Counted from the stretch's first letter, positions 6,723 through 34,710 are shown. The stretch: DNA of 64,000 nucleotides from an uncultured Clostridia bacterium (GCA_947626555.1 CANQSP010000001.1:42-64041), one strand, 5' to 3'. The notes: generated by a model from the letters alone, not told the origin. A program made the numbers and translations.

Positions 6723-6724
6723 TA

Positions 6725-9094: not shown

Positions 9095-10270
9095 ATGGAC
9101 TGTAAAAGAAGTACTAAGGAGGATTTATTGTTCTTTTTTAAGTTTGTGCGGAAACGTGCAAAGAGGTTGCAGAGAAGATTGAAAAGGAAAATAAATCAAG
9201 GAATTCAGTGGCTTGATTATAACCTTTTCAATATAGTATTAAATATGGCAGCTATTTTTGCAGCAGCAATACTGGTCCCTTTAGTAGTCGCAGCAGGGCA
9301 GGAGGCTGAAGCCGAGAAAGTTGATAAGATTATGGAGAATTATACCCAGATGAGAGTGGGGGATTATATATATTTGAAAGAAAATTCCCCAGAAGAACAG
9401 CAACGACCAATAATAGTGATAAAATCTGGAACAGAAGAATTTCATCAAGAGGAACACATAATCCATACACAAGAGAGTGTAGAAGGAATTGAATTGATTT
9501 CTTCTGTTGGAGAAATTCCTCTTATGGCTAATCTAGAAAGCATTGAATCTCCCAGGGCTGAAACTCCAGCTGAGTCTCAAATTGAGGCTGAAACAGAAAC
9601 TCAAGCAGAGGCAAAGACCAGAACTGAAACACAACCTCAGACGGAACCTGAGACAGAGGCACCAACTAAGGCTGAAACGCAACCTCAGACAGAGGCACAG
9701 ACCGAAGCTGAAACAGAACCAAAAGAAACTCAGTCATCAGATGCCATATCTTCTAACCAAAGGGCGTGCAATGAATACGCGGATGCCTTACTGGAAGAGG
9801 GTGTAATTACTGAAGAAGAGGCAGAGATGATTAAAGCCAGAGGAAATGGACCAGAGAACCCGTGGATTTCCAATGTTTCTGAAAATGTAATTGGAAATTT
9901 GGCAGACGTAATGTATGCCGAAGCGGGAAATTTAATTTCTCTGGAAGGTTGGGCTAGAGGAAAAAGAGCTCTCCTACTTGTTGGAAGTGTGGTATGCAAT
10001 AGATACCATTATCCAACGTTAGGAAACTGTGATACTCTGGCTGAGATAATATCTCTTCCGGGAGCATACGCTTCTCGTACACAAAGGCGGATGGGAAAGC
10101 GATACTATATAAGCGATGGATATGCTTACATAGAAGATTGGGCCAGAGATTTATATACCTATGGTCCAATCGGCCCAAGGACACTCATATGGCAAGGACC
10201 AAGACAGGGAATTGTGTATGAGGTTATCCATGGGGAGTATTTCGGGGTGGATAAAAACCCACCATTCTAA
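9095..10270 (+). CDS. membrane-anchored protein with acidic T/E/Q-rich repeats and C-terminal SleB/CwlJ-type (Hydrolase_2) cell-wall hydrolase domain; compositionally foreign
   Basis: N-term basic stretch + TM (IVLNMAAIFAAAILVPLVVAAG), repeats ETQPQTEAQTEAETEP, C-term ...AEAGNLISLEGWARGKRALLLVGSVVCNRYHYPTLG...; codons GCC/CTG/CCC/GGG and visibly higher G+C than all neighbours. Confidence 0.7.
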   Translation: MDCKRSTKEDLLFFFKFVRKRAKRLQRRLKRKINQGIQWLDYNLFNIVLNMAAIFAAAILVPLVVAAGQEAEAEKVDKIMENYTQMRVGDYIYLKENSPEEQQRPIIVIKSGTEEFHQEEHIIHTQESVEGIELISSVGEIPLMANLESIESPRAETPAESQIEAETETQAEAKTRTETQPQTEPETEAPTKAETQPQTEAQTEAETEPKETQSSDAISSNQRACNEYADALLEEGVITEEEAEMIKARGNGPENPWISNVSENVIGNLADVMYAEAGNLISLEGWARGKRALLLVGSVVCNRYHYPTLGNCDTLAEIISLPGAYASRTQRRMGKRYYISDGYAYIEDWARDLYTYGPIGPRTLIWQGPRQGIVYEVIHGEYFGVDKNPPF

Positions 10271-11987: not shown

Positions 11988-12102
11988 TTTTAACTAAACC
12001 AAAGAAATGAGATTCTTAAAGCTATAAATTATTAATAAAAATATTAAATGTATGAATATTTTAAAGAAAGTAATAAATAGTTATGGAAAGGAATAATTGT
12101 TT

Positions 12103-12496
12103 ATGATAGATATAAAAAATTTAATTGAAGTTGCAAAACAAGCAAGAAATAATGCTTATGCTCCATATTCAAATTATAAAGTAGGATGTGCTTTAGTTTC
12201 TAAAAATCGGAAAAGTTTTTTCTGGTTGCAATATAGAAAATGGTGGTATAATGTCAATTTGTGCTGAAAGAGTAGCCTTTTCGAAGGCAATTTCTGAAGG
12301 AGAAAAAAATTTTGAATGTTTACTGGTTTTAGGTGGAAAAGAAAATCTAATATATACTTCTCCATGTGGATATTGTAGGCAATTTATTTCAGAATTTTGC
12401 GATAAAAATTTTAAAATTTATATTTATTATGAAGATGGAAAAATTATTGAGAAGACTTTAGAAGAATTATTGCCAGATAATTTTGAATTAAAATAG
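12103..12496 (+). pseudogene. cdd: cytidine deaminase with +1 frameshift (inserted C at ~12208)
   Basis: N-part MIDIKNLIEVAKQARNNAYAPYSNYKVGCALVSKN then frame change; C-part (ORF 12251-12496) carries CAERVA...PCGYCRQ zinc motifs; deleting C12208 restores ...[27 protein letters not shown]. Confidence 0.8.
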
Positions 12497-12531
12497 ATAA
12501 TAAAATTGCTAAAAAAGAAAATCAAAAAAGT

Positions 12532-20600: not shown

Positions 20601-23600
20601 AAAATATGAAATATTAAAAGATAAGCCTATTATAAATACATTTAATGTAAGCAATATAGGAACAGATGTCAATATTTTAGTAGATGTACTAGATCCAGAT
20701 GATGCATTAAAAGAGACGGCAAAAGTCACAATAACAGACAATTCAAATGGAGAAGAATTATTTAATAGCCCAATTATAAAAGGTACAAATCATTATGAAT
20801 ATAAAGCAGAACTTAATAAAGAATATTTAATTAAAGTTATAAATGGATATGACTTGGATTCAAATGAACTAAATGTTGGAAGTGAAAACTTAAATGTATA
20901 TGAAGAACTATATACACAACAACTTTTAAAAATAGAGGATACGGCTAAATTTTCAGCAGTTCATGTAACAGTACCAAGTATTGTAACAGATGATGATGAA
21001 AACGTAATACTAACTTTTGAAAATGTATACCAATCAATTTATGATGTTAAAGAAGCTACTATAAATGGAATTCCATATACAGTCACAAAAGAAGATAATG
21101 TATACAAAGTAGTTTTAGAAAAAGGAGAAAAAGGTGACAATATATTAAAATTTACATCAGTAAAGCTTTCAAATGATTCTGTATTTGAAGTTAATAGAAA
21201 TATAAAATATTTATATGAAAATGTAAGACCAATAGCTGAAAATATAGAAATAAATGAAGTTCGTAGTGAAGATATGGTAAAAGCTACATTTACAGTTAAT
21301 GATAAAGATGAAGCAACTGAAAAACTATATGCAAGGTTATACAATAGTAATGGAGTTCAAATAGAAGAAACTGAATTAGACAAAAATGCTACAGAAGTTA
21401 GTTTCTCATTGCCAAAAGCATATAAATATAGTATTGATATTTTAGCTGATTATGATAAAGGTAATGGAACAAATTATGAAAAAATTGTAATTGGTTCTAA
21501 AGTTCACGAAGTTGGACCGGTTGTAGAAATAACTGAATTTAAAACAGAAGATAAAAAATTCTTTGAAAAAGATGAAGAAAACGTAAAACTTATATATAAA
21601 ATAAATACAAATATAGATGAGAATGTAAGACTATTTAGAATAAATGGAGTAACATATGATGCAGAAAAAATAGATACGGATACTTATAGAGTGTTATTTG
21701 ATGGTGTTGGAAATCAAGGAGGAACTTTAACTTTAGAAGTACAACAGATTGTATTTGAGAAGACAATGCATAAATTAGAAAACTATTATAAGTCAACTAT
21801 TGAAGTCTTGAGGCAAAAGCCAGAAGTTTCACAGGTAATAGCCGAAAATAAAGATGGCAAATTCGAACTATCATTTAAAATGAAAGATGATGATGAGGCT
21901 CTAACAGGAAACATTAATTTAAGAATACTAGACGAAGAAGAACAAGTTTATTTAGAAGAAAATATACAATTAAATGATAAACAATATAATAAAATTATAG
22001 ATAATTTACAATTTAATAAGGATTACAAGATAATTATAACTGCAAATTATGACTTAGATGGTGATTTAACAGGTAATGGTAATGAATATACAGGTGAGCA
22101 ACTTTTAGAACAAACAATTAAGGTTGAAAATAATATAGAGTACAACTTTAAATTTAGTGATTTTGGACTTATGACTCCAGATATGCCATTAGCATGGCCA
22201 GGATATCCATTATATTTACAATTTATAAGTACAAACGATTCTCAATATAAAGTAGACTCAATTGTTTTAAATGGAGTAGGATATAAAGTTGAAGAAATGT
22301 ATGGATTATATATGATATCAGAATATATTCCTGAAATAAAAAGTGGTATTCAAGAAGTTAAAGCAGAAAAAGTAATATTAAGTAATGGTAAAGCTTTTGA
22401 TATAAATGGTGAGGAAAATAAAGCTAAATTTGAAGTATTAAGAGATTATCCTAAGGCTAGTATTTTATCAATGACAGAAGATACAGAAAGAGGAAAACTA
22501 AAGATTGTATTTCAAATTCGAGATGATTTTAATACAATTAAGGATCCTACAGATATTAAAGTTTTAATATATAGTAGTGACTCAGATGAACCATATCAAA
22601 CCAAAAAAATCTCTATAGGTGATACAGAAGTTGAACTTGATACACCATTAGCCTCTGAATATGTTATAGAATTTTTAGCTGATGCTACAGTTTCAGAATT
22701 GATGCCTGAATATAACCAATTAAACTCTAAATTAGTTGAAAAAACATTTGAAGCTAAACAAAGTACTGTTATTACAGAAGTAAAACCAGAGACATATTAT
22801 CCTGAAAAAGGTGCAATTTTTGGAGTAAATTATAAGATTTTAACATTAAGTAAGAAAAAGGTAGTTGCAATAACTATAAATGGACAGAGAAGTATAGTTG
22901 ATGAAAATGGTACAAATACTTATAAAGCATGTCTTTCAGCAAATAATGAAGCAGGTTTAATGACATTTACAACATCTACAATAGAATTTGAAGATGGGTC
23001 AACAGTTGATTTTAAAGCAAGTGACCAAGTAGAAGTAATAAAAGAATTACCAATAATTACAAATCTTACAAGAACAGATAATTTTGATGAAAAATCTGCA
23101 ACATTTACATTTAATGTAGAAGATCCTGATGGAATAATAAATGAAGGTGGAACATTTAAAGGAAGTATTAATGGGCAAAATAAAGATTTAAATATTGGTG
23201 AGAATTCTATGACATTTACAAATCTAACGCCTAATGCCAATATAGAGTTCAATGTTATTGGTACTTATGATTTAGATACAAATGCATTAAATAGTGTTAC
23301 AGGAAAGAATGATAATAATCATATAGGAGATAAAATCTTTACAAGACAATTCTTATTTACTGAAAATAATGACTTATATAGAGTTACAAAACTAGAAACA
23401 CAAAAAAATAATAAACAAAATACTTATTTTGAAAAGGATGATGAAATAAGACTAAAATTTAACTTTATTTGGGTAGATGACACATATGTAGAAAAAGCAA
23501 AAGTTAACGGAGAAACTTATGATGCTTACAAAAATGGCGAAGATTATACTATTGTTTTAAATAAAATGACCGATGTAGGAATACATGAAATTAAATTAGA

Positions 23601-26600
23601 AAGCATTAAATTAAGCAATGGTAAAGAAATACCACTTAAAGAAAATAATATTGTAAAAATAGAAATACTAAAAGATAAACCTTCAATGAGTAAATTTAGT
23701 TTTAATGATAATGACAAAGATATTTCTTTAAATATTACTATATTAGACAAAGATAATGCTATTCCAGAAAACAATCAACTTGATATTGAAGTACTTGACG
23801 AAAATAATAAAAATGTTTGTTCTGAAAAATTAAATGTAGGAGAAAACACGGTTACATTTAATAAAAATGATAGTAATAGATATTTAATAAAAGTTATAGC
23901 TTCTTATGATAGAGATACAAATGAAATAGATCAAAACTCTAATGAAATTAAAAATGGTGAAATTGCATTTGAAAACATTAATATAAATGAACGTAAATAT
24001 GAATTAAAAGACATTACAAATATTGATGTATACCACTTCTCAGAAGACGGAAACGTTGAAAAGACTAATACTATAGAATATAGTAAAATAAATAGCTATA
24101 AAGAAACTTATATAGTAAAAGTAGAAATGAAATCTCTACCATCATATTATGGAAAGATAGAAGAATATAGGAATGAAAATGGTAAATTAGTATTTACTCT
24201 AAGTAATGAAAATATAATTTTATACAATAATGATGAACCAACTGAAAAATGTGACATAGTTTATGGAACAATAGTAGGTGATATAGCTACTAAAGAAGAC
24301 ATCTATTCTTTAAATGATAGTAGTCCAGAAGGACTATATATTCCTGATTATAATAGAATTAGCAAATTACAAGGATTTAGTACAGAGAAACATAAATTAT
24401 ATCATAACTTAAATAAATTAATGCCATTTTATGATTCTAAATACTTAGTAAGAGACGGAGAAAAAATAGAAAAAGAAAATATATTAAATACAAAACTAAT
24501 AAAAGAAGTAATTCCTGTAAATAAAAATGGTGAAGCGGTTATTGCAGTTTCAACAGATGATTACCAAAATTTATCAAGCATAAAAGTAATATTTGATGAT
24601 GACGAAATGAAAAAATATAATATTGAGTTTAATGAATATTATAGTGGAATAGCATCATATATTATTCCAGAACTAGGAATTGAATATAACTATAATAATT
24701 ATGTTATAAAATCAGATGCTAGAATTATAAAGGATTTAAAAGATACAATAAGTAAATTCAACTATAGAACTGATTTAGATGTATTAACAGCAGATTTAGA
24801 TAGTAGAATTTATAGAGAATATTACGAAGATACATTAAAACAAGAATTTGATGATTTTATTAAAAAATTATTAGTTAGCAAAAATTATAGTGTAGTAATA
24901 GAAAGTGATACCTATAACGAACTAATTAAAAAGGACTTATTAAGTGAAACAACTTTAATGAAATGGATATATGCATACAATTATATTCATCGTTGGTATT
25001 CTTTCGATATAGATGGCTTAAAGATGAGTGATATACTTGTATTTAAAGGTAATTTATTAAATAAACCTACAACAATAGAAAGCATATCTCAAGATGTTTT
25101 AAGCGGAAATATAACTACCTATTCAACAGGAGAATTCTATAAAAATAAATTAGCACAATACACAGGACAACAAGATGTATTTGAATTTGTAAAATATTAT
25201 GTGCAAAAATATGCGGAAGACAAAAATATAGAGACTTGGTATAGAGATAATGTTCCAGGTATAGTTGTAGAAGCACAATGTATAAATAAAGAAGTACAAT
25301 ATTCACTATGGCATAATTTAAGTATAAATGTAGGAAAGTATAATAAATATGTACTTGTACTTCTAACACTTCCAGATGATGCAGCATATATAATTTCAAA
25401 TCCAACATCTATATTGTTCGGATCTCAAAGAACATACGTACAAAATCCTAAAGATCCAGTACAAAGAGCTAAGTTACAAGCATTAGCTGATAGTTTTGCT
25501 AATGATGTATCAAAATTCTTCTCAACACTTTCAACATTTGTATCAATTGAAGAGATGAATAGAATGAGTACGGTGCATTTAGATACATTATTAACATATG
25601 TTGATGGAGGTACTGGTTCAAGAGTTGTTCAAAAACCTTTAACGACACAAGAGCCATTCCATAAAAACTTCTGCGAAGTTTTAAATGATTGGACAATTTT
25701 GAAAGGAGCTGGAGCATACTGTGGCGGAGGTAGTGTATACTTTGTTTATGAAGATGCATTACGTGCATACTCAGTATGGACTCATGAAAATGCACACTTA
25801 GGAGCATTCCAGAATTTGCTATGTGGTGGATGCAGAAATAGAATTATAAGAGAAGATATGCCTGATGGAAATATAACGCAAGGTTCAGGAGATGGTGGAA
25901 TAAGCTTTAACTTAACTTATGATTATGACAAAAATGCTTTAGTTACTACAAATTTAACAACGGAAAGAATAAATACTCCTGAAAAAATGAAGCAATTCTA
26001 TAGCAGATTGATAGATACAAGTGATTTCTTAGATTATATTGAAGCTAAAGCATTCTTACAGTTAAATGCTGAACAACAAGCTAAATTATGCTTACAAGTG
26101 TCTTATCCGAAAGGATCAGGTCAATATATAGATGGAGAAATAACTAAATACGAAAAAATAGATAAAGAAAAAATTGAAGCAATGCATTTAGATGATGTTC
26201 ATGATTTATGGACAAATCAAATAGTAATGGTGCCTGGTGTAACAGAAAGAACAATGACACCAAGTCTGTATGGAGGAGATTCAATATACACAAGACATTG
26301 GTATCAACCATATAATGACAATGGTAGAGCTGATTCATATAGTTTTAAATGGTTAGCATTTGAAATGATTGCAACAGGAGGATATAAGGAGGGCTATAGA
26401 TATTGGTATGGTAGCAACGGAGGAAAAATAAAAAATGATTTACAATCATTAAGAGCAATTACTAAAAATGAAAATATGACATTTGAACAATATAAAATAG
26501 ACAGATATAATAAGATGCAGAATAACTGGGAGAATATGAAATTCTTTGATGCAACTGAAGTACAAAAAGAATACTTAGAAGCATTAAAGAAAGATGCAGA

Positions 26601-28215
26601 AGAAAATGATAATAAACTTACAAATAGTACAGCTGTTAAAAGAAAATATTATTATATGGTAAAACAAGGAACAGATGATTTTAGACAAGAGATATTTGAC
26701 TATGTGCCAGAAAAAGTTGAATCTAAAGAGTATGTTTCTACAGCAAAAGAATTTGTTGATGCATGTAAATTAAAATCAAGTAGCACAATTTACTTAGAAA
26801 AAGATATTGATTTATCTGAATACGATACAGGAAGTGCTATTGTAACAAATGCATTTACTGGAACAATTGAAGGTCAAAATAATACAATAACAGGACTTAA
26901 ATTACCATTATTTGCATCATTGTCAGGGGCAACTGTTAAAGATTTAATTATAGACGATTCTACTATAATTATAAATAGTACAGATATAGGAGCATTAGCT
27001 AAAACAATGACAGGAACAGAGTTAAATAATATTACTATTAAAGGTTTATTAATGAGTTCTAAAAATAACAAACAAGTGGGTGCTTTAGTTGGTTCTGCTT
27101 ATAACTCAAATATTAAAGATTGCCATGCTATTAATGTAAATGTATTTGGTTCAACTAGAACAGGAGGACTTATAGGATATGCTGTAAATAATTGTACTAT
27201 TGAGGAGAGTACTTCGAATGCAACAGTAACAGCTACAGCTGATGCAGCGGCAGTACTTGTAGGAGAGTGCAACAGTTCAACTATAAAAAATTGCTATGCA
27301 ATTGGAAGTATTAATGTATCTAGTGCAGCAAATTATGCAGGTGGAATTGTAGGCTGGGCTGATGGCACATCTATACATAATAATTATGCTAAAGTTTCAG
27401 TATCTGCAGTTAAGAGTAATTCGGGTGTATTTAGTGGTACTATTAGAAATAAATTTGATGTTCAAAATAATATTGCTATAGCAAACGGACTTTCACATGT
27501 TAATATAGGGCTATTCGATAACGATACTGAAGCAAGTAAAATGAATAGTAGTGATACATTTAAAAATAATTATGAAATAGCAAATGGATTTACAGGTAAA
27601 ACAAGTAGTGCAAGAGGAGTAAAAGCAGAAAAAATTAAATCAATGACAATACAAGAACTTACAAAGGAATTCATGCAAGAAAATTTACATTGGGATGAAA
27701 AAATATGGAACTTGGATTCTCTTGAGGAAGGTGGCTTACCAACATTAAGAAATCACGATCCAAATAAATCAGAGAGTGCATTAATATTAATGAATGAATC
27801 TAATAAATTAGATTCACTAGATGAGTTAAAAGTTAATGATGAAGAAGTTGTGAATACTATTGAAGACACAAACATAGTCGACACTAATACGCTAAATACA
27901 GCAAATGAAATAAATAATACAAATATGCTAAATGAGGCAAATGAGACAAATGAAATAAATAATACGAATGTGCTAAATGAAGCGAGTACGACGAATGAAA
28001 TAAATAATACGAATATGCTAAGTGAAGCAAGTACGACGAATGAAATAAATAATACGAATATGCTAAGTGAAGCAAATACGACGAATGAAATAAATAATAC
28101 AGATATTCTAAATGAAAAGAATACAAACAACATAGTAGATAGCAATACTTTGGAAGAGAAAAGCGAAAATGAAGTAATTAGTGATACAGTTAATAGTATA
28201 GAAACAACTGAATAA
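14638..28215 (+). CDS. giant (4525-aa) multidomain surface protein: signal peptide, cohesin-like domain, two TM helices, type-I dockerin, P/N-rich linker, ~13 tandem ~290-aa modules, HExxH zinc-metallopeptidase (M26/IgA-protease-like) region with GLUG-type Gly-rich repeats, C-terminal 15-aa tandem repeats
   Basis: MKKITFFLITMILSLAVATSVNA signal (probable start ATG 14650); DVNKDGKVDYDD / DINKDGQITIGD Ca-loop pairs; recurrent ...VLKDKP...YDLD module boundaries; WTHENAHLGAF; GGLIGY/GGIVGW/GALVGS repeats; single uninterrupted ORF. Confidence 0.85.
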   Translation: MMENMKKITFFLITMILSLAVATSVNAVENIELKTSKDKVNLGEEIIVSLDLNIENKEETSLYAYTAKLSYDKDVFEVIDESDFEESENWSDITYNKRNNKFALINKKGETDESILKIKLKVRKNATPGNTSITVNSITASDGKKDIPIEGKTVDVMVIKTGLAEGESIPLNKTNEVVEDTSNIEVGKDFSWIAYILIALIIVIFIFTIYYYISSKKRNTSKNKRITIMVASIIILVILLITTIILLTDKKADVNKDGKVDYDDTKDIIEYLLEIKNPQEDENLSDKDINKDGQITIGDVAASTNQATNQDYHANVNGSNNNSNTNGSTNNQSSEANASKPNNPSNSTNPSEPSNPNEPSNPSGSTNPNEPSNPTNPTEPSNPANPNEPDNPDNPNIPSEPTKPDNPNTPSDPTKPDNPNTPSEPTKPEEQYSSVVETTTVSNLTPKKGQEITLDLYIDVTPYTEIEAIEIEGKSYKVTKVEEPSVRIASLVPVKFKAIASNINGGENNHYKVTIQAPTSAGVQDIHITKIELDNGKKVSIDYSVKVDVLKDAPKVNDFYIDDKNEIPEISFNIEDSDGAFKGGKFSITDVDGNVVFVSENIKVGKNTFSANLEDGKTYHYDLVADYDLDHDYFAENIAPNHREEKDFIDDIIEDEEGNLEFTREYNFLSKNMMITPEVSSEDELILSFENGAESYYKVTYVKVNGVEYEVKLENGKYITKLKKGSKGNNTITVESVKLENGHIFTVNQTFSYVYLKDKPTIGDIEVKLEEGNLHVSAPITDQDNTIKSVQVKIKDQNGNVIKTEKLNKNSNNGLYLNDIEIDVSGKYTVEVEVTYDLGNGKENKVSKIYAKNITEPIKATILKEQSSMAEYATRGKKVEAIYTIEDNTEKEVTHITINGVKIPATKLSDEKYKVEFLAPSERPQNGKTTIIASELYYKDEVEPIEVECAFEIEILKSVPTIEDLHINDSREKPEINFVLVDAENAFISGKIIITDENENKVTEIEMSLIDTENGIQTYTLDNIEQGKGYEISIEATYDLDIDRTNNKNEETKIIKTHKFKIEKDYEFTLSDFKFINIENEKVTLQFTSTNKTEYIIEKVEIELNGIRHEYKVIKNGDNYTIEIPLTDINNTRTELTLEEVILSNLKEFNRETDFELFSSLEKQVIFKNKPTATIGNVIVNEEETQIIVSNISIEDTDNALLSDKLTVQLRDINGTVVDSKNISRTDTAVTFDYNKAGDYKVVIVADYDIVDLQNHTNEEIAQSSIITIHIKAEIINSEFNKYPNKKEQMTIKYTIKDNTNKDVTAIYFNDIRVDAVKLGEDLYEVVYIAPTEHGKKSITASELYYGEEEVDVVDKNDEIDVLKDKPIISNFKVVTAGDKPKATFDIIDTDNSFVDGKIIIKNKANDSIKEVIIVKNDTGIITEYELEIDSFEQYEVKLQINYDLDSNILPSQGENDNVGILEQVIEIVEDIQPSKLQINDLKLKEVNEEQETITLEFTSKNPSKHHIAKVKLEGKEEEFYVTYDEASDTYTLVLPYNNGEKETITIEKVILDNDTQDEVILEEKASIELFKTKPTVQELRATYNKETKVISATLLIKDTDNIVTKAYAKVICPDGEEKTQEEVTLENKSGEVTFENITKAGTYKVEILADFNALDGKIHNSETLELEDNVTDEVYVEIKVNAVSTIELSNKYPEKGGTVQVTYNIEDNTDEKITAIEYGATHIANNLEEIDGNYKAILGEEFTAQAGVSTLKITKIHYGDKIIDVTHEGDKIDVLKEKISFNENTFTSTENLEKSTVAFTFDIINPDNAIIDGTASVGESIQNFSKAQNTLIFNVEKNKTLELLIKVNYDRDTNTIVEDENKNVETLTVVKEFSLDEDMEFDITDIYTSKVNTETLQETNTQYFNKGEEFRVNFKTATNSALKVSYVTIGGTKYNAQEINSEANIEEVEGYYAIVKASESEKGVKELNIDSVTLSDGKVITLENKNLKYEILKDKPIINTFNVSNIGTDVNILVDVLDPDDALKETAKVTITDNSNGEELFNSPIIKGTNHYEYKAELNKEYLIKVINGYDLDSNELNVGSENLNVYEELYTQQLLKIEDTAKFSAVHVTVPSIVTDDDENVILTFENVYQSIYDVKEATINGIPYTVTKEDNVYKVVLEKGEKGDNILKFTSVKLSNDSVFEVNRNIKYLYENVRPIAENIEINEVRSEDMVKATFTVNDKDEATEKLYARLYNSNGVQIEETELDKNATEVSFSLPKAYKYSIDILADYDKGNGTNYEKIVIGSKVHEVGPVVEITEFKTEDKKFFEKDEENVKLIYKINTNIDENVRLFRINGVTYDAEKIDTDTYRVLFDGVGNQGGTLTLEVQQIVFEKTMHKLENYYKSTIEVLRQKPEVSQVIAENKDGKFELSFKMKDDDEALTGNINLRILDEEEQVYLEENIQLNDKQYNKIIDNLQFNKDYKIIITANYDLDGDLTGNGNEYTGEQLLEQTIKVENNIEYNFKFSDFGLMTPDMPLAWPGYPLYLQFISTNDSQYKVDSIVLNGVGYKVEEMYGLYMISEYIPEIKSGIQEVKAEKVILSNGKAFDINGEENKAKFEVLRDYPKASILSMTEDTERGKLKIVFQIRDDFNTIKDPTDIKVLIYSSDSDEPYQTKKISIGDTEVELDTPLASEYVIEFLADATVSELMPEYNQLNSKLVEKTFEAKQSTVITEVKPETYYPEKGAIFGVNYKILTLSKKKVVAITINGQRSIVDENGTNTYKACLSANNEAGLMTFTTSTIEFEDGSTVDFKASDQVEVIKELPIITNLTRTDNFDEKSATFTFNVEDPDGIINEGGTFKGSINGQNKDLNIGENSMTFTNLTPNANIEFNVIGTYDLDTNALNSVTGKNDNNHIGDKIFTRQFLFTENNDLYRVTKLETQKNNKQNTYFEKDDEIRLKFNFIWVDDTYVEKAKVNGETYDAYKNGEDYTIVLNKMTDVGIHEIKLESIKLSNGKEIPLKENNIVKIEILKDKPSMSKFSFNDNDKDISLNITILDKDNAIPENNQLDIEVLDENNKNVCSEKLNVGENTVTFNKNDSNRYLIKVIASYDRDTNEIDQNSNEIKNGEIAFENININERKYELKDITNIDVYHFSEDGNVEKTNTIEYSKINSYKETYIVKVEMKSLPSYYGKIEEYRNENGKLVFTLSNENIILYNNDEPTEKCDIVYGTIVGDIATKEDIYSLNDSSPEGLYIPDYNRISKLQGFSTEKHKLYHNLNKLMPFYDSKYLVRDGEKIEKENILNTKLIKEVIPVNKNGEAVIAVSTDDYQNLSSIKVIFDDDEMKKYNIEFNEYYSGIASYIIPELGIEYNYNNYVIKSDARIIKDLKDTISKFNYRTDLDVLTADLDSRIYREYYEDTLKQEFDDFIKKLLVSKNYSVVIESDTYNELIKKDLLSETTLMKWIYAYNYIHRWYSFDIDGLKMSDILVFKGNLLNKPTTIESISQDVLSGNITTYSTGEFYKNKLAQYTGQQDVFEFVKYYVQKYAEDKNIETWYRDNVPGIVVEAQCINKEVQYSLWHNLSINVGKYNKYVLVLLTLPDDAAYIISNPTSILFGSQRTYVQNPKDPVQRAKLQALADSFANDVSKFFSTLSTFVSIEEMNRMSTVHLDTLLTYVDGGTGSRVVQKPLTTQEPFHKNFCEVLNDWTILKGAGAYCGGGSVYFVYEDALRAYSVWTHENAHLGAFQNLLCGGCRNRIIREDMPDGNITQGSGDGGISFNLTYDYDKNALVTTNLTTERINTPEKMKQFYSRLIDTSDFLDYIEAKAFLQLNAEQQAKLCLQVSYPKGSGQYIDGEITKYEKIDKEKIEAMHLDDVHDLWTNQIVMVPGVTERTMTPSLYGGDSIYTRHWYQPYNDNGRADSYSFKWLAFEMIATGGYKEGYRYWYGSNGGKIKNDLQSLRAITKNENMTFEQYKIDRYNKMQNNWENMKFFDATEVQKEYLEALKKDAEENDNKLTNSTAVKRKYYYMVKQGTDDFRQEIFDYVPEKVESKEYVSTAKEFVDACKLKSSSTIYLEKDIDLSEYDTGSAIVTNAFTGTIEGQNNTITGLKLPLFASLSGATVKDLIIDDSTIIINSTDIGALAKTMTGTELNNITIKGLLMSSKNNKQVGALVGSAYNSNIKDCHAINVNVFGSTRTGGLIGYAVNNCTIEESTSNATVTATADAAAVLVGECNSSTIKNCYAIGSINVSSAANYAGGIVGWADGTSIHNNYAKVSVSAVKSNSGVFSGTIRNKFDVQNNIAIANGLSHVNIGLFDNDTEASKMNSSDTFKNNYEIANGFTGKTSSARGVKAEKIKSMTIQELTKEFMQENLHWDEKIWNLDSLEEGGLPTLRNHDPNKSESALILMNESNKLDSLDELKVNDEEVVNTIEDTNIVDTNTLNTANEINNTNMLNEANETNEINNTNVLNEASTTNEINNTNMLSEASTTNEINNTNMLSEANTTNEINNTDILNEKNTNNIVDSNTLEEKSENEVISDTVNSIETTE
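15655..15930 (+). repeat. ~18-bp tandem repeats encoding PSNP(N/T)EP linker
   Basis: ccaagtaatccaaacgaa-type units, in-frame inside giant gene. Confidence 0.7.
27904..28128 (+). repeat. five 45-bp tandem repeats encoding NEINNTNMLSEASTT
   Basis: Near-identical 45-bp units at C-terminus of giant gene. Confidence 0.8.
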
Positions 28216-28330: not shown

Positions 28331-28777
28331 TTATTGGCAATTACAACTATTATTGTTGTCGCACATTTTTTTAGAGCAATTAGACATATAGAATTTCTTT
28401 TCAGCCAATTTATCTTGTACTCCACGAAGAGCTTCTCCAAATCTTTGGAAGTGAACAATTTCTCTTTGACGTAAGAAACGAAGTGGATCTAATACATCTG
28501 GGTCATCTCTACATAAATCTATTAATTTTTCATAAGTTGCTCTTGCTTTTTGCTCTGCTGCTAAGTCTTCTTGAAGGTTTGCAACAGGGTCACCTTTACA
28601 AGCAATATATGCTGCTGTCCATGGGGTTCCAGAAGCGGATACTGGGTATACATCTACACCATGGTCTGTATAATATGCGCCTAATCCTGCTTTTTCTATA
28701 TCTTCAGGACCAACACCTTCTGTTAATTGATGAACTATTGAACCTACCATTTCTAAGTGAGCTAATTCTTCTGTACC
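28331..28777 (-). pseudogene. cotJC: cotJC 3' segment (Mn-catalase-like spore coat protein CotJC, residues ~71-218), separated from its 5' segment by a 5-kb element
   Basis: Translation begins abruptly at HGTEELAHLEMVGSIVHQL... (Mn-catalase signature) with in-frame TGA immediately upstream; no start or RBS. Confidence 0.8.
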
Positions 28778-28919
28778 ATGATGTTGTCAATCATAATAAT
28801 CCTAAAAAAAGTAATACTTTCTATCTATTATTGTCTAAGGAAAAATTACACAATTAAAAGTATCTTTTTTATCACTATTACCATATTATATATTACTATT
28901 TATGAAAGAAGGAGATTTT

Positions 28920-29729
28920 ATGTTTTTTATTCCATCAAATGATAATGCAAATATAGCGGTTTATGAATTAAATCCAAATGCATATAAAACGATAGTTTTA
29001 ATACATGGTTGGCCTTTATCACACAAAATGTTCGAATATCAGCTACCAGATTTAATAAGAAATGGTTATAGAGTTATAAGTATTGATATAAGAGGATTTG
29101 GAAACTCTGATGTAACAAGTGATGGATATAATTATAATCAATTTGCAACTGATTTATATTATGTAATATATGCTTTAAATTTATCAAATTTTGATTTACT
29201 AGGTTTTTCAATGGGAGGAGCAATTGCTACAAAATACATGCAAATGTATAATGGATATGGTGTTAGAAAATTATGCTTATTAGATTCTTCTGTTCCTTCA
29301 TATTCAAAAACAACAAATAATCCATATGGTCAAACAATACAATCTACCAATGATTTAATAAATCTAGGATATAATGATAGACCAGTTTTAAATGAAAATT
29401 TCGGAAATATGTTTTTTTACAAAAGACCTTCTGATGCGTTTAAAAATTGGTTTCAAAATTTAAGCAATAGTGCTTCTGGAATAGGAGAAATGAATTCTTT
29501 AATTGCTCTTAGGGATGAAGATATATTTGATTCGTTAAAATATATTCATATTTCAACAGCTATTTTTCATGGAAAGGAAGATAGAATATGTCCTTTTCCT
29601 ATGGCAGAAATTATGCATAATAATATTCGTTCTTCAATTTTGTTTCCACTTGAAAATGCTGGGCATGGTGCATTTTATGACGTTAAAGATGAATTTAATA
29701 GGTCTTTAATAAAATTTTTAAATTATTAA
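28920..29729 (+). CDS. alpha/beta-hydrolase fold protein (element cargo)
   Basis: HGWPLS oxyanion region, GFSMGG nucleophile elbow, C-terminal His; AAGGAGA RBS before ATG 28920. Confidence 0.7.
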   Translation: MFFIPSNDNANIAVYELNPNAYKTIVLIHGWPLSHKMFEYQLPDLIRNGYRVISIDIRGFGNSDVTSDGYNYNQFATDLYYVIYALNLSNFDLLGFSMGGAIATKYMQMYNGYGVRKLCLLDSSVPSYSKTTNNPYGQTIQSTNDLINLGYNDRPVLNENFGNMFFYKRPSDAFKNWFQNLSNSASGIGEMNSLIALRDEDIFDSLKYIHISTAIFHGKEDRICPFPMAEIMHNNIRSSILFPLENAGHGAFYDVKDEFNRSLIKFLNY

Positions 29730-29801
29730 TTTAATTATGAAAATCCGTACCATAATGTTGTCAATTAAAAAAATTTAGGGCTATTTGCTGTATAAAATAT
29801 A

Positions 29802-30335
29802 AGTTCACTGAGTGTACTTAATGAAATACACTTAGTGAACTTTTTATTTTATGCTTTAATTTTATATTCAACACTTTTTTCTTCTAATAACTTGAAATTA
29901 CAACTTACAAATATGGGGGATACTTTTATAAGTACCCCCTAATTTTTCAGGAAACTCGTTTATAGTTAAACTAAAGGCTCGTTTCTAACCTAATGTTCAA
30001 TAGGATATTTGTTTATAGAATTTTCATTCTAAAGGCTCATATCTAACCTAATGTTTAAATTGCACTTGTTTATGAAGTTAATCAAAGGTTCGTGCTAACC
30101 TAGTTTATTTGATAAATTGCTTTACCAATATTAGTATATTCATTATACTATATTTTATTTACAAAATCAAAACTTATACACAAATTCTAATTCAAAATTT
30201 GTATTCACTTAGTGTATTTTTTTCAATTCATTTAGTGAACGAAATTATTACACCTAGTGAACTTTTCGGTTCATTTAGTGAATTTTAGTACTCTGATAAG
30301 TTTTTTTTAGCAATACATTCGGTGAATTATTGCAT
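29802..30335. promoter_or_regulatory. array of 7 palindromic operator-like sites (consensus TTCACTtAGTGAA) plus three ~50-bp iterons (29957-30112)
   Basis: Sites at 29803, 29827, 30205, 30228, 30252, 30270, 30316; iterons GTTTATnnn...AAAGGCTCGTnTCTAACCTAATGTT x3; 900-bp non-coding tract upstream of recombinase. Confidence 0.5.
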
Positions 30336-30475
30336 CATTTTTGCATAACTTTTTTGCTCACTTCTCAATTCTCTTTGCCTTTTATCTTCTTTGAATTCTT
30401 CTACTGTCCATTTCTTTACTTGTCTTGGGCATTTTTTTGTGTTTATTTTCATAAATTTTAAAGAGGCGATTTAAT

Positions 30476-30613
30476 ATGGTAATAGAAGAATATACGATTG
30501 AAAATACAAAGATAAAATTTTATGATGACTGTATTGTAGCAGATACTGTTACTCAAAAAGAATATATAGATAACATTATTATTAATTTAATACAAAATTC
30601 TCCTTTGTTGTAA
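30476..30613 (+). CDS. small hypothetical protein (45 aa) upstream of recombinase; candidate directionality/regulatory factor
   Basis: AAAGAGG RBS 9 nt before ATG; MVIEEYTIENTKIKFYDDCIVADTVTQKEYIDNIIINLIQNSPLL. Confidence 0.3.
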   Translation: MVIEEYTIENTKIKFYDDCIVADTVTQKEYIDNIIINLIQNSPLL

Positions 30614-30676
30614 TTTGGCATATTTTCTTATATAATGTTTACAAGTTAAAGACAAATTACAAGGAAAGGAGGAAAT

Positions 30677-32239
30677 GTGCAAAATGATGGCACATATGCA
30701 ATATATTTAAGAAAATCAAGAGAAGATATTGAAGCAGAAAAATACGGAGAAGGCGAAACTTTAGCAAGGCATGAAAAGATTTTAACTACTTTAGCAGAAA
30801 AAAGGAATTTACATATTTCAAAAATTTATAGAGAAGTTGTAAGTGGCGAAACAATTAGCGAAAGAAAAGAAATGCAGAAACTTCTTAAAGATGTTGAGAA
30901 TGAAAAATGGACAGGTGTTTTGGTTGTTGAAGTAGAAAGGTTGGCTCGTGGAGATACAGCAGACCAAGGTATAGTATCAAAAGCATTTAAATATTCGCAT
31001 ACAAAGATTATTACACCTGTTAAAACTTATGATCCAGATAATGAATTTGATGAAGAATATTTTGAATTTGGATTGTTTATGTCTAGAAGAGAGTATAAAA
31101 CAATAAATAGGCGTCTGCAAAGAGGTCGTGAGATTTCAGTCCAAGAAGGTAAATTTGTAGGCAATATTGCACCTTTTGGTTATGATAGAGTTAAATTAAA
31201 AGATTCAAAAGGTTATACATTATCTATTAATGAAAATGAAGCACTTATTGTTAAAGAAATATTTAGGTTATATACTTTTGAAAATAATACTATTAGTTCA
31301 ATTGTAAAGCAGTTAAATAATATGAATTTAAAGCCTAGAATTTCTAATGAATGGACGATTTCTACTGTTAAAGAAATTCTTTCTAACCCAACATATATTG
31401 GTAAATTAACATGGAATAGAAGAAAACAAAAAAAGAAAACTAAGAATGGACATATTATAATTTATAGACCACGCAATAAAGATTATTTAATTTATGATGG
31501 ACTACATGAACCTATTATTGATAATAAAACATGGGAATTAGTTCAAGAAAAAAGAAAGCAAAATACTCCAAAAGCAAAGCATAGTTATCAAATTCAAAAT
31601 CCACTAGTAGGACTAGTATTTTGTGAAAAATGTGGAAAGCCAATGCAAAGAAGACCTTATAACAAAGCCAATAAACCTGCAACTCTTATGTGCTCTAATT
31701 CTGTATGTAATAATATAAGTTCTAAACTTTATATTGTTGAAGATAAAATAATTGAAGCTTTGGAAATATGGCTTGAAAATTATAAAGTAGATTATGAAAT
31801 TAAAGACAATTTAAAATCTAATAACAATGAAATAATAAAAAAGTTCATTACTACAAATAAGAAAGAGTTAAAAAAAGAAAATATTAAACTTAATAAAATT
31901 TATGACTTTTTAGAAAATGGTATTTATAATAAAGAAGAGTTTATAAATCGTTCAAAGGCTATTAAAGAGAATATAGAAATTTTAGAAAATAAGTTAAAAG
32001 AGTATAATTCTTTATTGGAAGATAATGCTAAAATAAAAAATGAAAAAGAAACAATGATACATAAACTAAAGAATGTTTTAGATTTATATTATAAATTAGA
32101 AGTAGCTGAAGATAAAAATATTTTACTAAAAAGTATTGTTACTAAAATTACCTATTTAAAAACTAAAAAATCCATAAAAAAGGGTTCTAATCCAACTGAT
32201 TTTGAATTGCATATATATCCTAAAATACCTAAAAGTTAA
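30677..32239 (+). CDS. large serine recombinase (resolvase catalytic domain + recombinase domain + zinc ribbon + coiled coil)
   Basis: GTG start 4 nt after GGAGG; N-term YAIYLRKSREDIEAEKYGEGETLARHEKIL (catalytic Ser region), central recombinase domain, CEKCGKPMQ...CSNSVCNN zinc ribbon, C-terminal coiled coil. Confidence 0.88.
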   Translation: MQNDGTYAIYLRKSREDIEAEKYGEGETLARHEKILTTLAEKRNLHISKIYREVVSGETISERKEMQKLLKDVENEKWTGVLVVEVERLARGDTADQGIVSKAFKYSHTKIITPVKTYDPDNEFDEEYFEFGLFMSRREYKTINRRLQRGREISVQEGKFVGNIAPFGYDRVKLKDSKGYTLSINENEALIVKEIFRLYTFENNTISSIVKQLNNMNLKPRISNEWTISTVKEILSNPTYIGKLTWNRRKQKKKTKNGHIIIYRPRNKDYLIYDGLHEPIIDNKTWELVQEKRKQNTPKAKHSYQIQNPLVGLVFCEKCGKPMQRRPYNKANKPATLMCSNSVCNNISSKLYIVEDKIIEALEIWLENYKVDYEIKDNLKSNNNEIIKKFITTNKKELKKENIKLNKIYDFLENGIYNKEEFINRSKAIKENIEILENKLKEYNSLLEDNAKIKNEKETMIHKLKNVLDLYYKLEVAEDKNILLKSIVTKITYLKTKKSIKKGSNPTDFELHIYPKIPKS

Positions 32240-32317
32240 AGTCTTTGATTATTTTGTTGAATGATAGTAAAAAATATAGTAAAATAAGTAAAATATAATT
32301 TATAAAGGGAGAAAAAA

Positions 32318-32821
32318 ATGAATCAAAATTTATATGAAGAATTAATTAAAAGAAAAAATGGGGGAGAAAAGTTAGATTGGAGCTCTATAACCAAAGAAGA
32401 ATTAGAAAATTTATTTGAAGAACATAGCGACAGTATGATAGCTGAACTATATAATATAACCAAATCACAAGTAATCAATAAAAGGAGAGAGTGGGATATA
32501 AAACAATATAATTATTTATTAAAAAATTTTCTAAAAGATGATAAAAATGATATTTTATTAAAAAATTTAAACCAAGGTTCTAAAGATAGATTATTAAATA
32601 AAAAAAATATAGACACTATTGCAATAGCTTTAACACATTATTTATTTAGAAATGGACCTGTAGAAGATATGCATAGTAGCGGAAAATTATCTCAAAATGA
32701 TATGAAAACGCTTAACAAATTTATGGTAAATAGAATAGCTGGGTTACTACAAACTATAAATAGAGAAGAATGGCTAAAATTAGAATTATTGTTAAATTAT
32801 TATAATACATTTTCTCGGTAA
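32318..32821 (+). CDS. hypothetical protein with N-terminal HTH-like segment (element cargo)
   Basis: AAGGGAG RBS; IAELYNITKSQVINKRREW resembles sigma-r4/HTH; no confident family. Confidence 0.4.
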   Translation: MNQNLYEELIKRKNGGEKLDWSSITKEELENLFEEHSDSMIAELYNITKSQVINKRREWDIKQYNYLLKNFLKDDKNDILLKNLNQGSKDRLLNKKNIDTIAIALTHYLFRNGPVEDMHSSGKLSQNDMKTLNKFMVNRIAGLLQTINREEWLKLELLLNYYNTFSR

Positions 32822-33135
32822 AGATTGGGATAAGCCGGTTGCAGATACAAAAGAAATAGATTTAGAATATAAAAAGTTTTTAGATAAAATTTAATTTACA
32901 GTCAATAAACAAAGTTATAATTTGGTTGGTTTTTGAGGCTATTCCAATTACAAATAACTTATATTTTTAGCTATTGACAACATATTGGTATGCATTCTTT
33001 TGTATCACAATATTGTCAATTTGAAGAATTAAAGGCTTTTGGCTGTAAAATTTTAATAATTTTAAAGAAAAATCTAAGGTTTGATTGAAAAATGCATATA
33101 TATGTAGTACAATGATTTTCGAAAGGAAAGATTTA

Positions 33136-33549
33136 ATGCAAGAAAAAGAATACATAGAAATTGGTAAATTAAATACAGAACTTTTTGAAAAAATTGGTGA
33201 GCATTTAATAACAAATGAAGTTATTTTTACTTATGAGAGAATGAATCATGTTAAAACAAAAAGAGTTCAATTATTTAATGAGGTAAAAGGTATTTTGCCA
33301 GATGTTTTATATAATCCAGATTACATATATAAAGATTGGAACAACAGAAATAATACATTAGTATTGATTAAATCTATAGATGAGAAGTTGAACCTAAATG
33401 TAGTATTAAAAATTGCTATATTAAATGATGATAAGCATACCAAAAATTCTATAATAACTATGATAAAAATAGGTAATAAAACTTTTAACAAAATAAAAAG
33501 AAACAAAAAAGCTAATTTATTATTTGAAAAACTAGACATTTATGAATAA
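33136..33549 (+). CDS. hypothetical protein (element cargo)
   Basis: ATG 33136 after GAAAGGAAAG RBS (ORF track 33085); no recognisable domain. Confidence 0.4.
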   Translation: MQEKEYIEIGKLNTELFEKIGEHLITNEVIFTYERMNHVKTKRVQLFNEVKGILPDVLYNPDYIYKDWNNRNNTLVLIKSIDEKLNLNVVLKIAILNDDKHTKNSIITMIKIGNKTFNKIKRNKKANLLFEKLDIYE

Positions 33550-33790
33550 AAGTTGTATAATTAAAGTACAATATAGAATAGTTATTTGAGGTGGTAAATT
33601 GTGTCAACCACGCACCCTATGGGTCAAAAGAGATGTAGGAAATGATACACCTACCAAATAACTAACAATCGAAAAAAGGGCTATGGAAACATAGCTCTTT
33701 TACTTATTTTACAACATTATAAATTTCTTCAAACACTGCTGGTCTTTTAGAATAGTCTTGTCTTTAGCTATTGACAACATATTGGTACGT

Positions 33791-34013
33791 ATTCTTCTGT
33801 ACCTATATCATTTAAAGTTGCTTTAGAGTTTTGGTCTGGCATTCCGAATCTTTGAGATAAATATCTTAAAGAAGCTGAAAGCTCTCCATCAGGGCCACCG
33901 TATTGAGAAATTATAAATTTAGCAAGTCTTGGATTTGGACATTTTATATTGATAGGATATTGTAATACTTTGTTATAAGTCCACATTAAAAATTCCCCCT
34001 TTCCCATGGCCAT
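33791..34013 (-). pseudogene. cotJC: cotJC 5' segment (residues 1-74) truncated by element insertion
   Basis: MAMGKGEFLMWTYNKVLQYPINIKCPNPRLAKFIISQYGGPDGELSASLRYLSQRFGMPDQ...DIGTEE then reads into element (YVPICCQ*); overlaps cotJB stop as in cotJ operons. Confidence 0.8.
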
Positions 34014-34360
34014 GGTTCTTCAAGCCATCTCCACTTATTACATGGAAAATAGATAGAAAGAGGTCCATAAACCTTTTGATATTTTTCCTTTAAATCTTTA
34101 AGCTTCTTTGAATATTCTTTATGAAGACAAATAGCTCTTTCGTCATCTGGGTGAGTATTTAAATATTCAGAAATATCAACAACAGCGAAATCTAAAGCAC
34201 GAATTTTATTAAGCATTTCATCTCTTTGCATTTGCTTTTCTCCACAATTATTATCATTTTGCATATTAGTAAATTCATAAGAATAAGTTGAAACTGCAGG
34301 TGATTGATTATTTGAAGAACAACAGCAGTTACAATTTCTGTTTTCGCAATCTTCTAACAT
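33986..34360 (-). CDS. cotJB: spore coat protein CotJB with Cys-rich N-terminal extension
   Basis: GGGGAGGG RBS 9 nt upstream; ...MLNKIRALDFAVVDISEYLNTHPDDERAICLHKEYSKKLKDLKEKYQKVYGPL matches CotJB; N-term CENRNCNCCCSS. Confidence 0.8.
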   Translation of the reverse strand: MLEDCENRNCNCCCSSNNQSPAVSTYSYEFTNMQNDNNCGEKQMQRDEMLNKIRALDFAVVDISEYLNTHPDDERAICLHKEYSKKLKDLKEKYQKVYGPLSIYFPCNKWRWLEEPWPWERGNF

Positions 34361-34710
34361 TTGTTACATCCCTCCCCAATAGTATTTGTAGCTTCTATAA
34401 AAGCATTTTCTTCTAATGATTGACAAGGTGAATAAGGATTTACAAGTTCAGGGAAGATTGTTCCCATTTTTAATCCAACACTAGGAGTAAAAGTTTGATT
34501 CATTGTTTGAATTGGAACATAACTTTGACCAAACATTGGATTAGCTGGAAATACAGATGGTGCTTCATCAAATCCACAACCACAGTCATCATTGTCATTA
34601 TTTGCTGAGTAATAATCTGCTTTAATACCACAGTTACTACAAGCAGTTTCTATAATGTCACTATTATAATTTTGCTGACAACAACATTTTTTATATTTGC
34701 AATTATACAT
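34354..34710 (-). CDS. cotJA: spore coat protein CotJA with Cys-rich N-terminal extension
   Basis: AGGAGG RBS; ...SYVPIQTMNQTFTPSVGLKMGTIFPELVNPY matches CotJA core; N-term CKYKKCCCQQNY; overlaps cotJB start. Confidence 0.75.
   Translation of the reverse strand: MYNCKYKKCCCQQNYNSDIIETACSNCGIKADYYSANNDNDDCGCGFDEAPSVFPANPMFGQSYVPIQTMNQTFTPSVGLKMGTIFPELVNPYSPCQSLEENAFIEATNTIGEGCNKC

Follow-up and report, generated by a model that had tools for sequence, protein, structure and literature searches.

The 64,000-nucleotide stretch analysed here (hereafter the window), from the assembly of an uncultured Clostridia bacterium (GCA_947626555.1, CANQSP010000001.1:42-64041), carries on its minus strand a cotJA-cotJB-cotJC spore-coat operon whose last gene lies in two pieces on either side of an insert that encodes its own large serine recombinase (LSR), referred to here as Rec (Table 1). 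The cotJC gene, whose start codon (ATG, 33984-33986) overlaps the stop codon of cotJB, is interrupted at codon 65: the 5' piece follows the family up to ...NDIGTEE and then departs from it into an element-encoded tail, YVPICCQ, before a stop at 33768; the 3' piece picks up the family sequence 5 kb downstream, at 28777, with GTEELAHLEMVG..., and ends at a stop at 28331. An earlier reading of the same sequence (the original prediction) had described cotJA and cotJB as intact and cotJC as split, with a 3' piece lacking a start codon; the split is confirmed, with Pfam and tblastn in agreement, and direct reading of the sequence at 28777 bears out the missing start. The residue numbers proposed for the two pieces (1-74 and 71-218) were counted from an ATG at 34013, inside cotJB, and are replaced here by the native numbering, 1-65 and 62-209.

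Homology to CotJC breaks off and restarts exactly at the two copies of a 13-bp direct repeat, ATTCTTCTGTACC, the predicted presence of which at both junctions is upheld by an exact search that finds just two copies in the window; the chance expectation, allowing up to one mismatch, is 0.13 matches. Removal in silico of one repeat together with the intervening DNA (5,026 bp) yields the junction ...AATGATATAGGTACAGAAGAATTAGCTCAC... within a single in-frame open reading frame (ORF) of 630 nt encoding 209 amino acids. The prediction that deletion would restore the frame thus holds, with the correction that the start shared by the homologues, all of which begin MWTYN, gives these lengths rather than 657 nt and 218 amino acids. 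When the rejoined protein is compared with the window by tblastn, it gives two matches of 100% identity, one for residues 1-65 (33986-33792) and one for residues 62-209 (28777-28334). A full-length Mn_catalase domain (PF05067, E=3e-54 over residues 1-185) appears only after in-silico excision, and intact CotJC homologues of 200-213 amino acids, at about 90% identity, span 97-100% of the restored ORF. The restored protein contains E35 and E65-x-x-H68, which we take to be the metal ligands by analogy with the Mn catalase of Lactobacillus plantarum. The 13-bp core encodes G62-T63-E64-E65 on the minus strand and so lies inside the E-x-x-H motif (target codons GTEELAH), a location that would explain both the conservation of the target across distant hosts and why neither fragment could function alone. 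Near-matches to the core at 9428 and 29284 were set aside as chance occurrences; by tblastn the window holds no second Mn-catalase gene.

Rec was correctly placed by the original prediction, and all three LSR domains are found in it (PF00239, PF07508, PF13408). Its catalytic-serine motif, YLRKS(14)RED, is not mutated, and Ser14 is invariant among family members; judged by its sequence, Rec is an intact LSR. It matches a PHROG annotated as integrase (E=1e-99), and its nearest solved structure, despite low sequence identity, is SprA of SPbeta (E=1e-48, alignment covering residues 9-511). Among its relatives in phages (41-48% identity) are the integrases of Clostridium perfringens phage PhiS63 (42%), a phage that inserts in sigK (PMC3442830), and of Clostridium tetani phage phiCT453A. 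Homologues number in the thousands, among them 119 other protein clusters at 83-87% identity.

The junctions match the architecture expected for a serine integrase. At attL the order is host, core, ATGATGTTGTCAAT, and at attR it is TTTAGCTATTGACAACATATTGGTACGT, core, host; one end of the element repeats the other in inverted orientation, with the 13-bp core set in 19-bp inverted arms. The arm motif ATGWTGTCAAT occurs four times in the window, versus 0.11 expected. The cores of the outer attL and attR agree at all 13 positions, and both outer arms fit the family consensus. The consensus arms show a symmetry of the form GGTAC-N10-GTACC centred on the dinucleotide TC at core positions 3-4, which corresponds to the GA of the Glu65 codon; judging from this symmetry, crossover most likely takes place at that dinucleotide, and the circular form of the element is predicted to contain the attP junction ...ATTGACAACATATTGGTACGTATTCTTCTGTACCATGATGTTGTCAAT....

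Table 1. Features of the interrupted cotJC locus, with positions counted from the first nucleotide of the window
Feature	Position	Strand	Remarks
cotJC 3' piece	28331..28777	-	codons 62-209 and stop; no start codon of its own at the junction; tblastn 100%
attL core	28765..28777	+	first of the two copies of the 13-bp repeat ATTCTTCTGTACC
left-end (P') arm at attL	28778..28796	+	ATGATGTTGTCAATCATAA
alpha/beta-hydrolase gene (esterase/lipase-like)	28902..29729	+	segment A cargo; Pfam Abhydrolase_1 E=1e-24
internal left-end (P') half-site and canonical left-end sequence	29747..29795	+	GTACCATAATGTTGTCAATTAAAAAAATTTAGGGCTATTTGCTGT; start of the core element, segment B
o45 (45 amino acids)	30476..30613	+	candidate recombination directionality factor; directly upstream of Rec in nearly all loci; no Pfam domain
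Rec, large serine recombinase	30677..32239	+	520 amino acids, GTG start; Resolvase, Recombinase and Zn_ribbon_recom domains (Pfam)
o167, cargo ORF (167 amino acids)	32318..32821	+	no Pfam match
internal attP-like site	32966..33023	+	P arm, degenerate core ATTCTTTTGTATC, P' arm; junction of two tandem elements
PBECR2-like nuclease gene (phage-Barnase-EndoU-ColicinE5/D-RelE fold family)	33085..33549	+	segment C; Pfam PBECR2 E=4.8e-6, just at the cut-off; PHROG 29609 E=3e-19
skipping-rope RNA (Rfam RF02924)	33581..33662	+	74.7 bits; gathering score 36.7
two-way terminator hairpin	33674..33701	.	ends the skipping-rope RNA (+) and the truncated cotJC 5' ORF (-)
right-end (P) arm	33763..33790	+	TTTAGCTATTGACAACATATTGGTACGT; kept in 46 loci; arm motif above chance in the window
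cotJC 5' piece	33768..33986	-	native codons 1-65 at 33792-33986, then 7 element-encoded codons and stop; tblastn 100%
attR core	33791..33803	+	other copy of ATTCTTCTGTACC
cotJB	33986..34360	-	intact; Pfam CotJB E=1e-25
cotJA	34354..34710	-	first gene of the operon, intact; Pfam CotJA E=5.7e-12

Relatives of Rec are encoded by 199 species representatives in GTDB (one genome per species scanned). Loci were compared for the best 80 of these 199 (Rec identity 77-87%) and for six context loci (L002-L007). The best 80 all come from metagenome-assembled genomes (MAGs) of uncultured gut Clostridia (mouse, rabbit, human and chicken), and one of them is a complete 1.70-Mb chromosome assembled from long reads (OZ006978.1, locus L046). 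Gene order is nearly uniform: cotJC from codon 62 to the end, variable cargo, o45, Rec, cotJC codons 1-65, cotJB and cotJA. Junctions were anchored on cotJC codons, a procedure that replaced longest-common-substring searching, which proved unreliable; the att core (ATTCTTCnGTnCC) and its arms align across 46 loci, with element sizes of 3.2-11.1 kb. In-silico excision gives ORFs of 196-234 amino acids in 30 of the 46 junction pairs, and contig ends or further insertions account for most of the shorter products. Only o45 and Rec are common to all of the elements. The remaining cargo is a mosaic that includes ABC transporters, an AAA_14/DUF4143 ATPase and a RhuM protein (both candidate defence families in PADLOC), and a sortase with a Big_2 surface protein. 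Phage structural, packaging and lysis genes and conjugation genes are absent from the window's element by Pfam and PHROG searches, and phage genes were likewise not found in the larger relatives examined; a prophage or prophage remnant was rejected on these grounds.

Sequence divergence among these loci indicates both constraint and mobility. Rec is under purifying selection (ratio of nonsynonymous to synonymous divergence, pN/pS, 0.17; median pS 0.41; 79 genes), as are both halves of cotJC (5' half, pN/pS 0.16, median pS 0.53; 3' half, 0.24 and 0.58). The corresponding values are 0.36 and 0.37 for o45, 0.34 and 0.61 for cotJB, and 0.40 and 0.58 for cotJA. Divergence of Rec is uncorrelated with that of the host genes (cotJB, cotJA and both cotJC halves), with Spearman coefficients of -0.15 to 0.00 at nonsynonymous and -0.05 to 0.06 at synonymous sites: nearly identical Rec genes (pS 0.05-0.15) occur where the host cotJB has reached synonymous saturation (pS about 0.6), and hosts with nearly identical cotJB (pS 0.02-0.05) bear Rec pairs at pS 0.25-0.41. 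The element therefore moves between species and is not a strictly vertical, domesticated remnant.

The small gene o45 is a candidate for the recombination directionality factor (RDF) of Rec, a role suggested by its position and its size, which is comparable to that of known RDFs (GirX, 42 amino acids; CD1234, 72 amino acids). In relatives it encodes 45-47 amino acids and falls into 126 protein clusters. Sequence searches of Pfam, PHROGs and the PDB returned no match. An AlphaFold2 model (mean pLDDT 73) consists of a beta-hairpin and a helix, and Foldseek ranks two chains of the RDF SprB, from the SPbeta integrase-RDF complex 9dxd, first and second among 350,542 PDB chains, at values that are not statistically significant (E=3, TM score 0.37).

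The two common genes appear to be served by promoters of different kinds. A sigma-A-like promoter (TTGTAA-17-TATAAT, 30608-30636) precedes Rec in the window, and across loci the o45-Rec intergenic region conserves such a promoter (TTTGT...-17-TATAAT) and a ribosome-binding site. The region just upstream of o45 (...TTGTCTTGGGTATTTTTTTATGcTTTTCTCATAAATTTtAAAGAGGCGATTTATATG) is common to 70 loci; it includes, invariant at about 20 nt before the o45 ATG, the sequence TTCTCATAAATTT and the -10-like element CATAAATT (30450-30457 in the window), and farther upstream lies CTTGTCTTGGGCA (30418-30430). The -10-like element resembles the CATA-type -10 of mother-cell sigma factors and the motif TCATAT(A/T)ATG of the clade's cotJA. 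Upstream of cotJA itself, the window has a mother-cell-type -10 element (ACATATTATGTA, at about 34740), and the motif TCATAT(A/T)ATGTA is kept there across the clade; in Bacillus subtilis the cotJ operon is sigma-E dependent. The heptamer AGACAAG (complement of CTTGTCT) upstream of o45, near -42, resembles GGACAAG, which we take to be the SpoIIID box, and is a weak lead. A generic sigma-70 scan of the window performed at chance (48 sites found, 46 expected) and was not used as evidence. Most relatives also have a strong sigma-A-like promoter (TTGATT-17-TATAAT) some 60-150 nt upstream of o45 (for example at about 9640-9785 in locus L011). A hairpin and T-run (CTCAAGACAAG..CTTGTCTTGGGTATTTTTTT) come about 25 nt after it, immediately ahead of the o45 promoter. 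Of this stretch, which could give rise to a short transcript or act as an insulator or a binding site, the right half alone (30418-30430) is left in the window. Overlapping the region upstream of o45 is a minus-strand ORF of 41 amino acids (30327-30452), probably a gene remnant, that matches part of a 129-amino-acid minus-strand ORF in three relatives.

The window's insert reads as three segments: the hydrolase module (A), a core element consisting of o45, Rec and o167 (B), and a 0.8-kb mini-element with the PBECR2-like nuclease gene and the skipping-rope RNA (C). At the internal attP-like site, similarity to attR sets in precisely where the arm begins or ends, at its boundary; the junction between segments A and B has no P arm. 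Tandem insertion, or re-integration of a circle with two attP sites, would explain this composite, in which only the outermost att pair, with its identical cores, restores cotJC. Contig L001 (5102 bp), at first a possible circle, proved to be a linear fragment equivalent to window positions 28537-33641, and all seven of its element-encoded ORFs compared (six element ORFs and part of the cotJC 3' piece) are 100% identical to those of the window. Apart from this contig, the window is alone among 87 loci in having internal arm motifs. Its modules recur elsewhere in other arrangements: the hydrolase gene is found at varying positions in eight relatives, the ORF of 167 amino acids lies 3' of the recombinase in five, and the nuclease-RNA module, unlike that of the window, sits at the left end of the element in seven.

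Public sequences were also searched for traces of excision. Among approximately 15 billion public proteins, in which the reconstituted CotJC of the window and of nine other species was looked up, the exact in-silico product of locus L084 was found. Two 1.3-kb contigs from different samples (L097 and L098) carry an intact cotJABC operon in which the L084 flanks are joined at the 13-bp core; L098 is 100% identical in nucleotide sequence to the L084 flanks (6551-6988 and 11627-12524), and L097 is 99.8% and 100% identical over two segments. Their junction is a natural and precise one, either an empty site or an excision product, and shows that insertion is reversible in nature. In the 90%-identity CotJC cluster that holds L084, intact genes and split fragments are both common, and in syntenic relatives of the window (acyl-ACP thioesterase, a protein of 420-433 amino acids, then cotJABC) cotJC is uninterrupted. 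A scan for the attP pattern had a single match in JGI metagenomes (L099, Ga0172378_10108184) and none among IMG/VR viral contigs. At positions 1640-1830 of L099, a Rec 54% identical to that of the window is followed by a complete P arm, the core ATTCTTCGGTACC and a P' arm, with no cotJC sequence; a more distant relative is thus represented here by its attP, in a free or a tandem form. For the window strain itself, the protein look-up found no rejoined junction and the attP-pattern scans no circular form of the element.

On this evidence the 5,026-bp insert appears to be a small, non-phage, horizontally mobile integrative element with its own LSR, and developmental excision of the element to restore cotJC is the best explanation of the locus, to which we assign a probability of roughly 0.7. 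Integration by recombination of attP with attB at the site of Rec in cotJC would have divided the gene in two, with attL at one junction and attR at the other. Rec would be produced constitutively from its own sigma-A-like promoter, and o45, as the RDF, would be transcribed from the CATA-type promoter by a mother-cell sigma factor (sigma-E or sigma-K). The element would then leave as a circle and the 209-aa cotJC would be rejoined behind cotJA and cotJB; the forespore chromosome would retain the element, which would thus be inherited at little cost. In this scheme the RDF role of o45, the sigma factor, and the confinement of excision to sporulation and to the mother cell are inferred. The skin-like interpretation offered by the original prediction is accordingly supported as a candidate, inasmuch as the operon is a sporulation operon of mother-cell type, the LSR is intact, the direct repeats lie within inverted-repeat arms and restoration is precise and in frame; the likeness is closer to the gin element of gerE than to skin, and the copy in the window is composite. 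Comparison with relatives adds to this support through the recurrence of the split in dozens of species, the purifying selection on Rec and both cotJC halves, the conserved small ORF in the RDF position and the precise natural junction matching L084.

Several points weigh against developmental excision. Restoration is not kept everywhere, as frameshifts are present in the cotJC 5' piece of four loci, which may be decaying copies or assembly errors. The lack of correlation between Rec and host divergence, and the co-occurrence of occupied and empty alleles in one cluster, would also fit an ordinary germ-line mobile element. The reconstituted CotJC of the window and of eight other species is not among the public proteins searched; the fold match of o45 to an RDF falls short of significance; the promoter assignments are based on short motifs; and the host is uncultured and known from an assembly only. 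Mutants of cotJ in B. subtilis have mild phenotypes, so a plain knockout may be tolerated. The frameshifts in the four loci are of 1 nt; that of locus L046 (OZ006978.1) lies right at the junction, at about 11863-11880.

The strongest competing account, although in our judgement an unlikely one, is an ordinary site-specific mobile island that knocks out cotJC and occasionally excises in the germ line outside any developmental control, loss of CotJC being tolerated. Such an island would be expected to move horizontally as clearly as these elements do, with near-identical Rec in diverged hosts and divergent Rec in close ones, to leave isogenic empty sites such as that of L084 beside occupied alleles, to carry accessory cargo (candidate defence genes, transporters and surface proteins) and to accumulate frameshifts in some 5' pieces. 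However, if loss of cotJC were costless, its two halves would not remain constrained (pN/pS 0.16-0.24) and restorable in 30 of 46 pairs. Nor does a simple knockout sit well with the repeated targeting of the 1.3-kb cotJ operon by four or more unrelated LSR lineages, a pattern documented for the mother-cell genes sigK, spsM, spoVFB, spoVR and gerE, or with a small ORF at the RDF position preceded by an invariant CATA-type element.

A quite improbable alternative is that the window holds a decayed, immobile remnant, a composite copy unable to excise, so that cotJC is a pseudogene in this strain. The internal arm motifs peculiar to this copy, its degenerate internal core (ATTCTTTTGTATC), the P arm missing between segments A and B and the absence of the hairpin and sigma-A promoter found ahead of o45 in most relatives would all suit a remnant; against it stand the identical outer cores with consensus arms, the integrity of Rec, o45 and both cotJC halves, which show no frameshift, and the conservation of the 45 nt that immediately precede o45. 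An assembly or binning artefact joining a mobile element to cotJC fragments is barely conceivable, since, for all that metagenome-type assemblies with conserved elements are prone to chimeric joins, the same architecture recurs in independent assemblies (over 80, of mouse, rabbit, human and chicken origin), including the complete chromosome OZ006978.1, and the independent contig L001 repeats the window's element at 100% protein identity.

Rec is not the only recombinase to have reached this operon. A second split of cotJC by other serine recombinases, near codon 100 or 136, is seen in seven relatives, and cotJB is split near codon 117, towards its 3' end, by other serine recombinases in ten. 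These additional recombinases are 23-28% identical to Rec, and the cotJ operon is in up to four pieces. In locus L048, in-silico removal of both elements (3359 bp and 3276 bp) restores a CotJC of 216 amino acids, whereas removal of one gives 112. Multiple splits by LSRs fit the view that this gene tolerates interruption by having it undone in a terminal cell. As a broader and more doubtful proposal, the 1.3-kb cotJ operon may be a shared landing pad, with sites at cotJB codon 117 (approximately) and at cotJC codons 65, about 100 and about 136, on which at least four unrelated LSR elements form a stackable, reshuffling cassette platform in a terminal-cell gene. If this were so, some species would need two or three precise mother-cell excisions for a single coat enzyme, and horizontally exchanged carriers of cargo (defence candidates, a nuclease-plus-RNA module and surface proteins) would reshuffle by way of internal attP sites.

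Intervening elements of sporulation genes known to date include skin in sigK, SPbeta in spsM, vfbin in spoVFB, vrin in spoVR and gin in gerE (PMC4191935, PMC5595907, PMC5025042). The gin element of Bacillus cereus ATCC10987 (recombinase GirC and the 42-aa RDF GirX; PMC5595907) is, like the cotJC element, a non-phage insertion in a short mother-cell sporulation gene; both combine an LSR with a very small RDF (a candidate one here) devoid of known motifs, and both have a short core in imperfect inverted repeats, a composite structure and signs of horizontal movement. They differ in target and in that gin is 28.6 kb long with three recombinases, whereas members of the cotJC family measure 3-11 kb with one; in that GirC and GirX are both induced during sporulation, whereas Rec has an apparent sigma-A-like promoter; and in that excision of gin has been demonstrated, whereas the cotJC element is known here from sequence alone.

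The skinCd element of Clostridioides difficile offers a parallel in regulatory layout: its recombinase CD1231 is constitutive and sigma-A dependent, and its 72-aa RDF CD1234 is sigma-E/SpoIIID dependent, with a transcription start site 14 bp before the ATG (PMC5025042). It shares with the cotJC element a clostridial host, a mother-cell target gene, an ORF restored by excision (in silico here), a sigma-A or sigma-A-like recombinase promoter and a small RDF gene (candidate here) with a promoter immediately upstream. In contrast, skinCd interrupts a regulator, sigK, so that its excision times the whole late programme, whereas cotJC is a structural or enzymatic coat gene; and skinCd is a 14.6-kb, vertically inherited prophage remnant, whereas the cotJC family is smaller, variable in cargo and exchanged between species. 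SPbeta of B. subtilis (SprA and SprB; PMC4191935, PMC5499854; 9dxd, 9dxh) resembles the cotJC element in targeting a spore-envelope gene rather than a regulator and in housing a small RDF gene (sprB; o45 as a candidate) within the element, and SprA is the nearest structure to Rec; SPbeta is, however, a 134-kb active phage, whereas the cotJC element has no phage genes and Rec has low identity to SprA. The three segments of the window's insert recall the tandem accretion at one attB, with internal att-like sites, of SCCmec-type islands (Ccr LSRs), although the latter integrate at the 3' end of orfX without inactivating it and have no developmental role.

Interruption of cotJC as such has been noted before: cotJC is listed as an interrupted sporulation gene in a preprint citing Abe et al. 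2013 (bioRxiv 10.1101/2021.11.22.469490), and an interrupted cotJC has been noted in Laceyella sacchari (Galperin 2022; bioRxiv 10.1101/2022.02.25.481979). These mentions invoke phage-like, transposon-like or skin-like elements and concern single genomes of Bacilli and their relatives, whereas the present family belongs to gut Clostridia. A literature search turned up no account of the clostridial family, of its att sites, RDF candidate or mobility, or of a multiply split cotJ operon. The kind of interruption is thus already known, and the large clostridial family has apparently not been described previously.

If excision is developmental, reversible gene interruption extends from regulators and a few envelope genes to the gene of a spore-coat enzyme in abundant uncultured gut spore formers, and the elements responsible for it need be neither large nor viral, and can be common (199 species representatives) and pass actively from one species to another. 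In MAGs, such a cotJC (in relatives, cotJB) will be called a pseudogene or fragment, which will bias inferences of sporulation capacity. The family also offers many natural variants of integrase, attB, attP and candidate RDF, matched sets of which are wanted for genome engineering with serine integrases. Its prevalence, horizontal exchange, stacking and occurrence as several elements per operon merit the attention of specialists.

Two further features of the insert deserve mention. In the window and in all seven relatives tested (L002, L004, L016, L028, L058, L065 and L084), a skipping-rope RNA (71-77 bits) lies within 30-50 nt downstream of a PBECR2-like ORF. Skipping-rope is an orphan RNA with a reported association with a nearby protein gene (PMC5737381); the strict pairing may help to explain it, and the pair may constitute a toxin/RNA or defence-type module. 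Between the hydrolase gene and o45 lie about 750 bp of non-coding DNA (29730-30480), in which an Rfam E-value search returned only spurious hairpin matches and Tandem Repeats Finder nothing relevant. Within it, a stretch conserved in 10-20 relatives (29790-30300) contains palindromes of the GTTCAC...GTGAAC type, four TTAGTGAA repeats and two to three direct repeats of 29 nt (29971-30000, 30029-30058).

On the plus strand beyond the operon, a giant ORF of 4525 amino acids (14638-28215) reaches to within 116 nt of the cotJC stop. Its product, probably a surface or secreted protein, combines a signal-peptide-like N-terminus with a dockerin-like repeat, long proline- and asparagine-rich and repetitive regions, an HExxH motif and, near the C-terminus, a GLUG motif.

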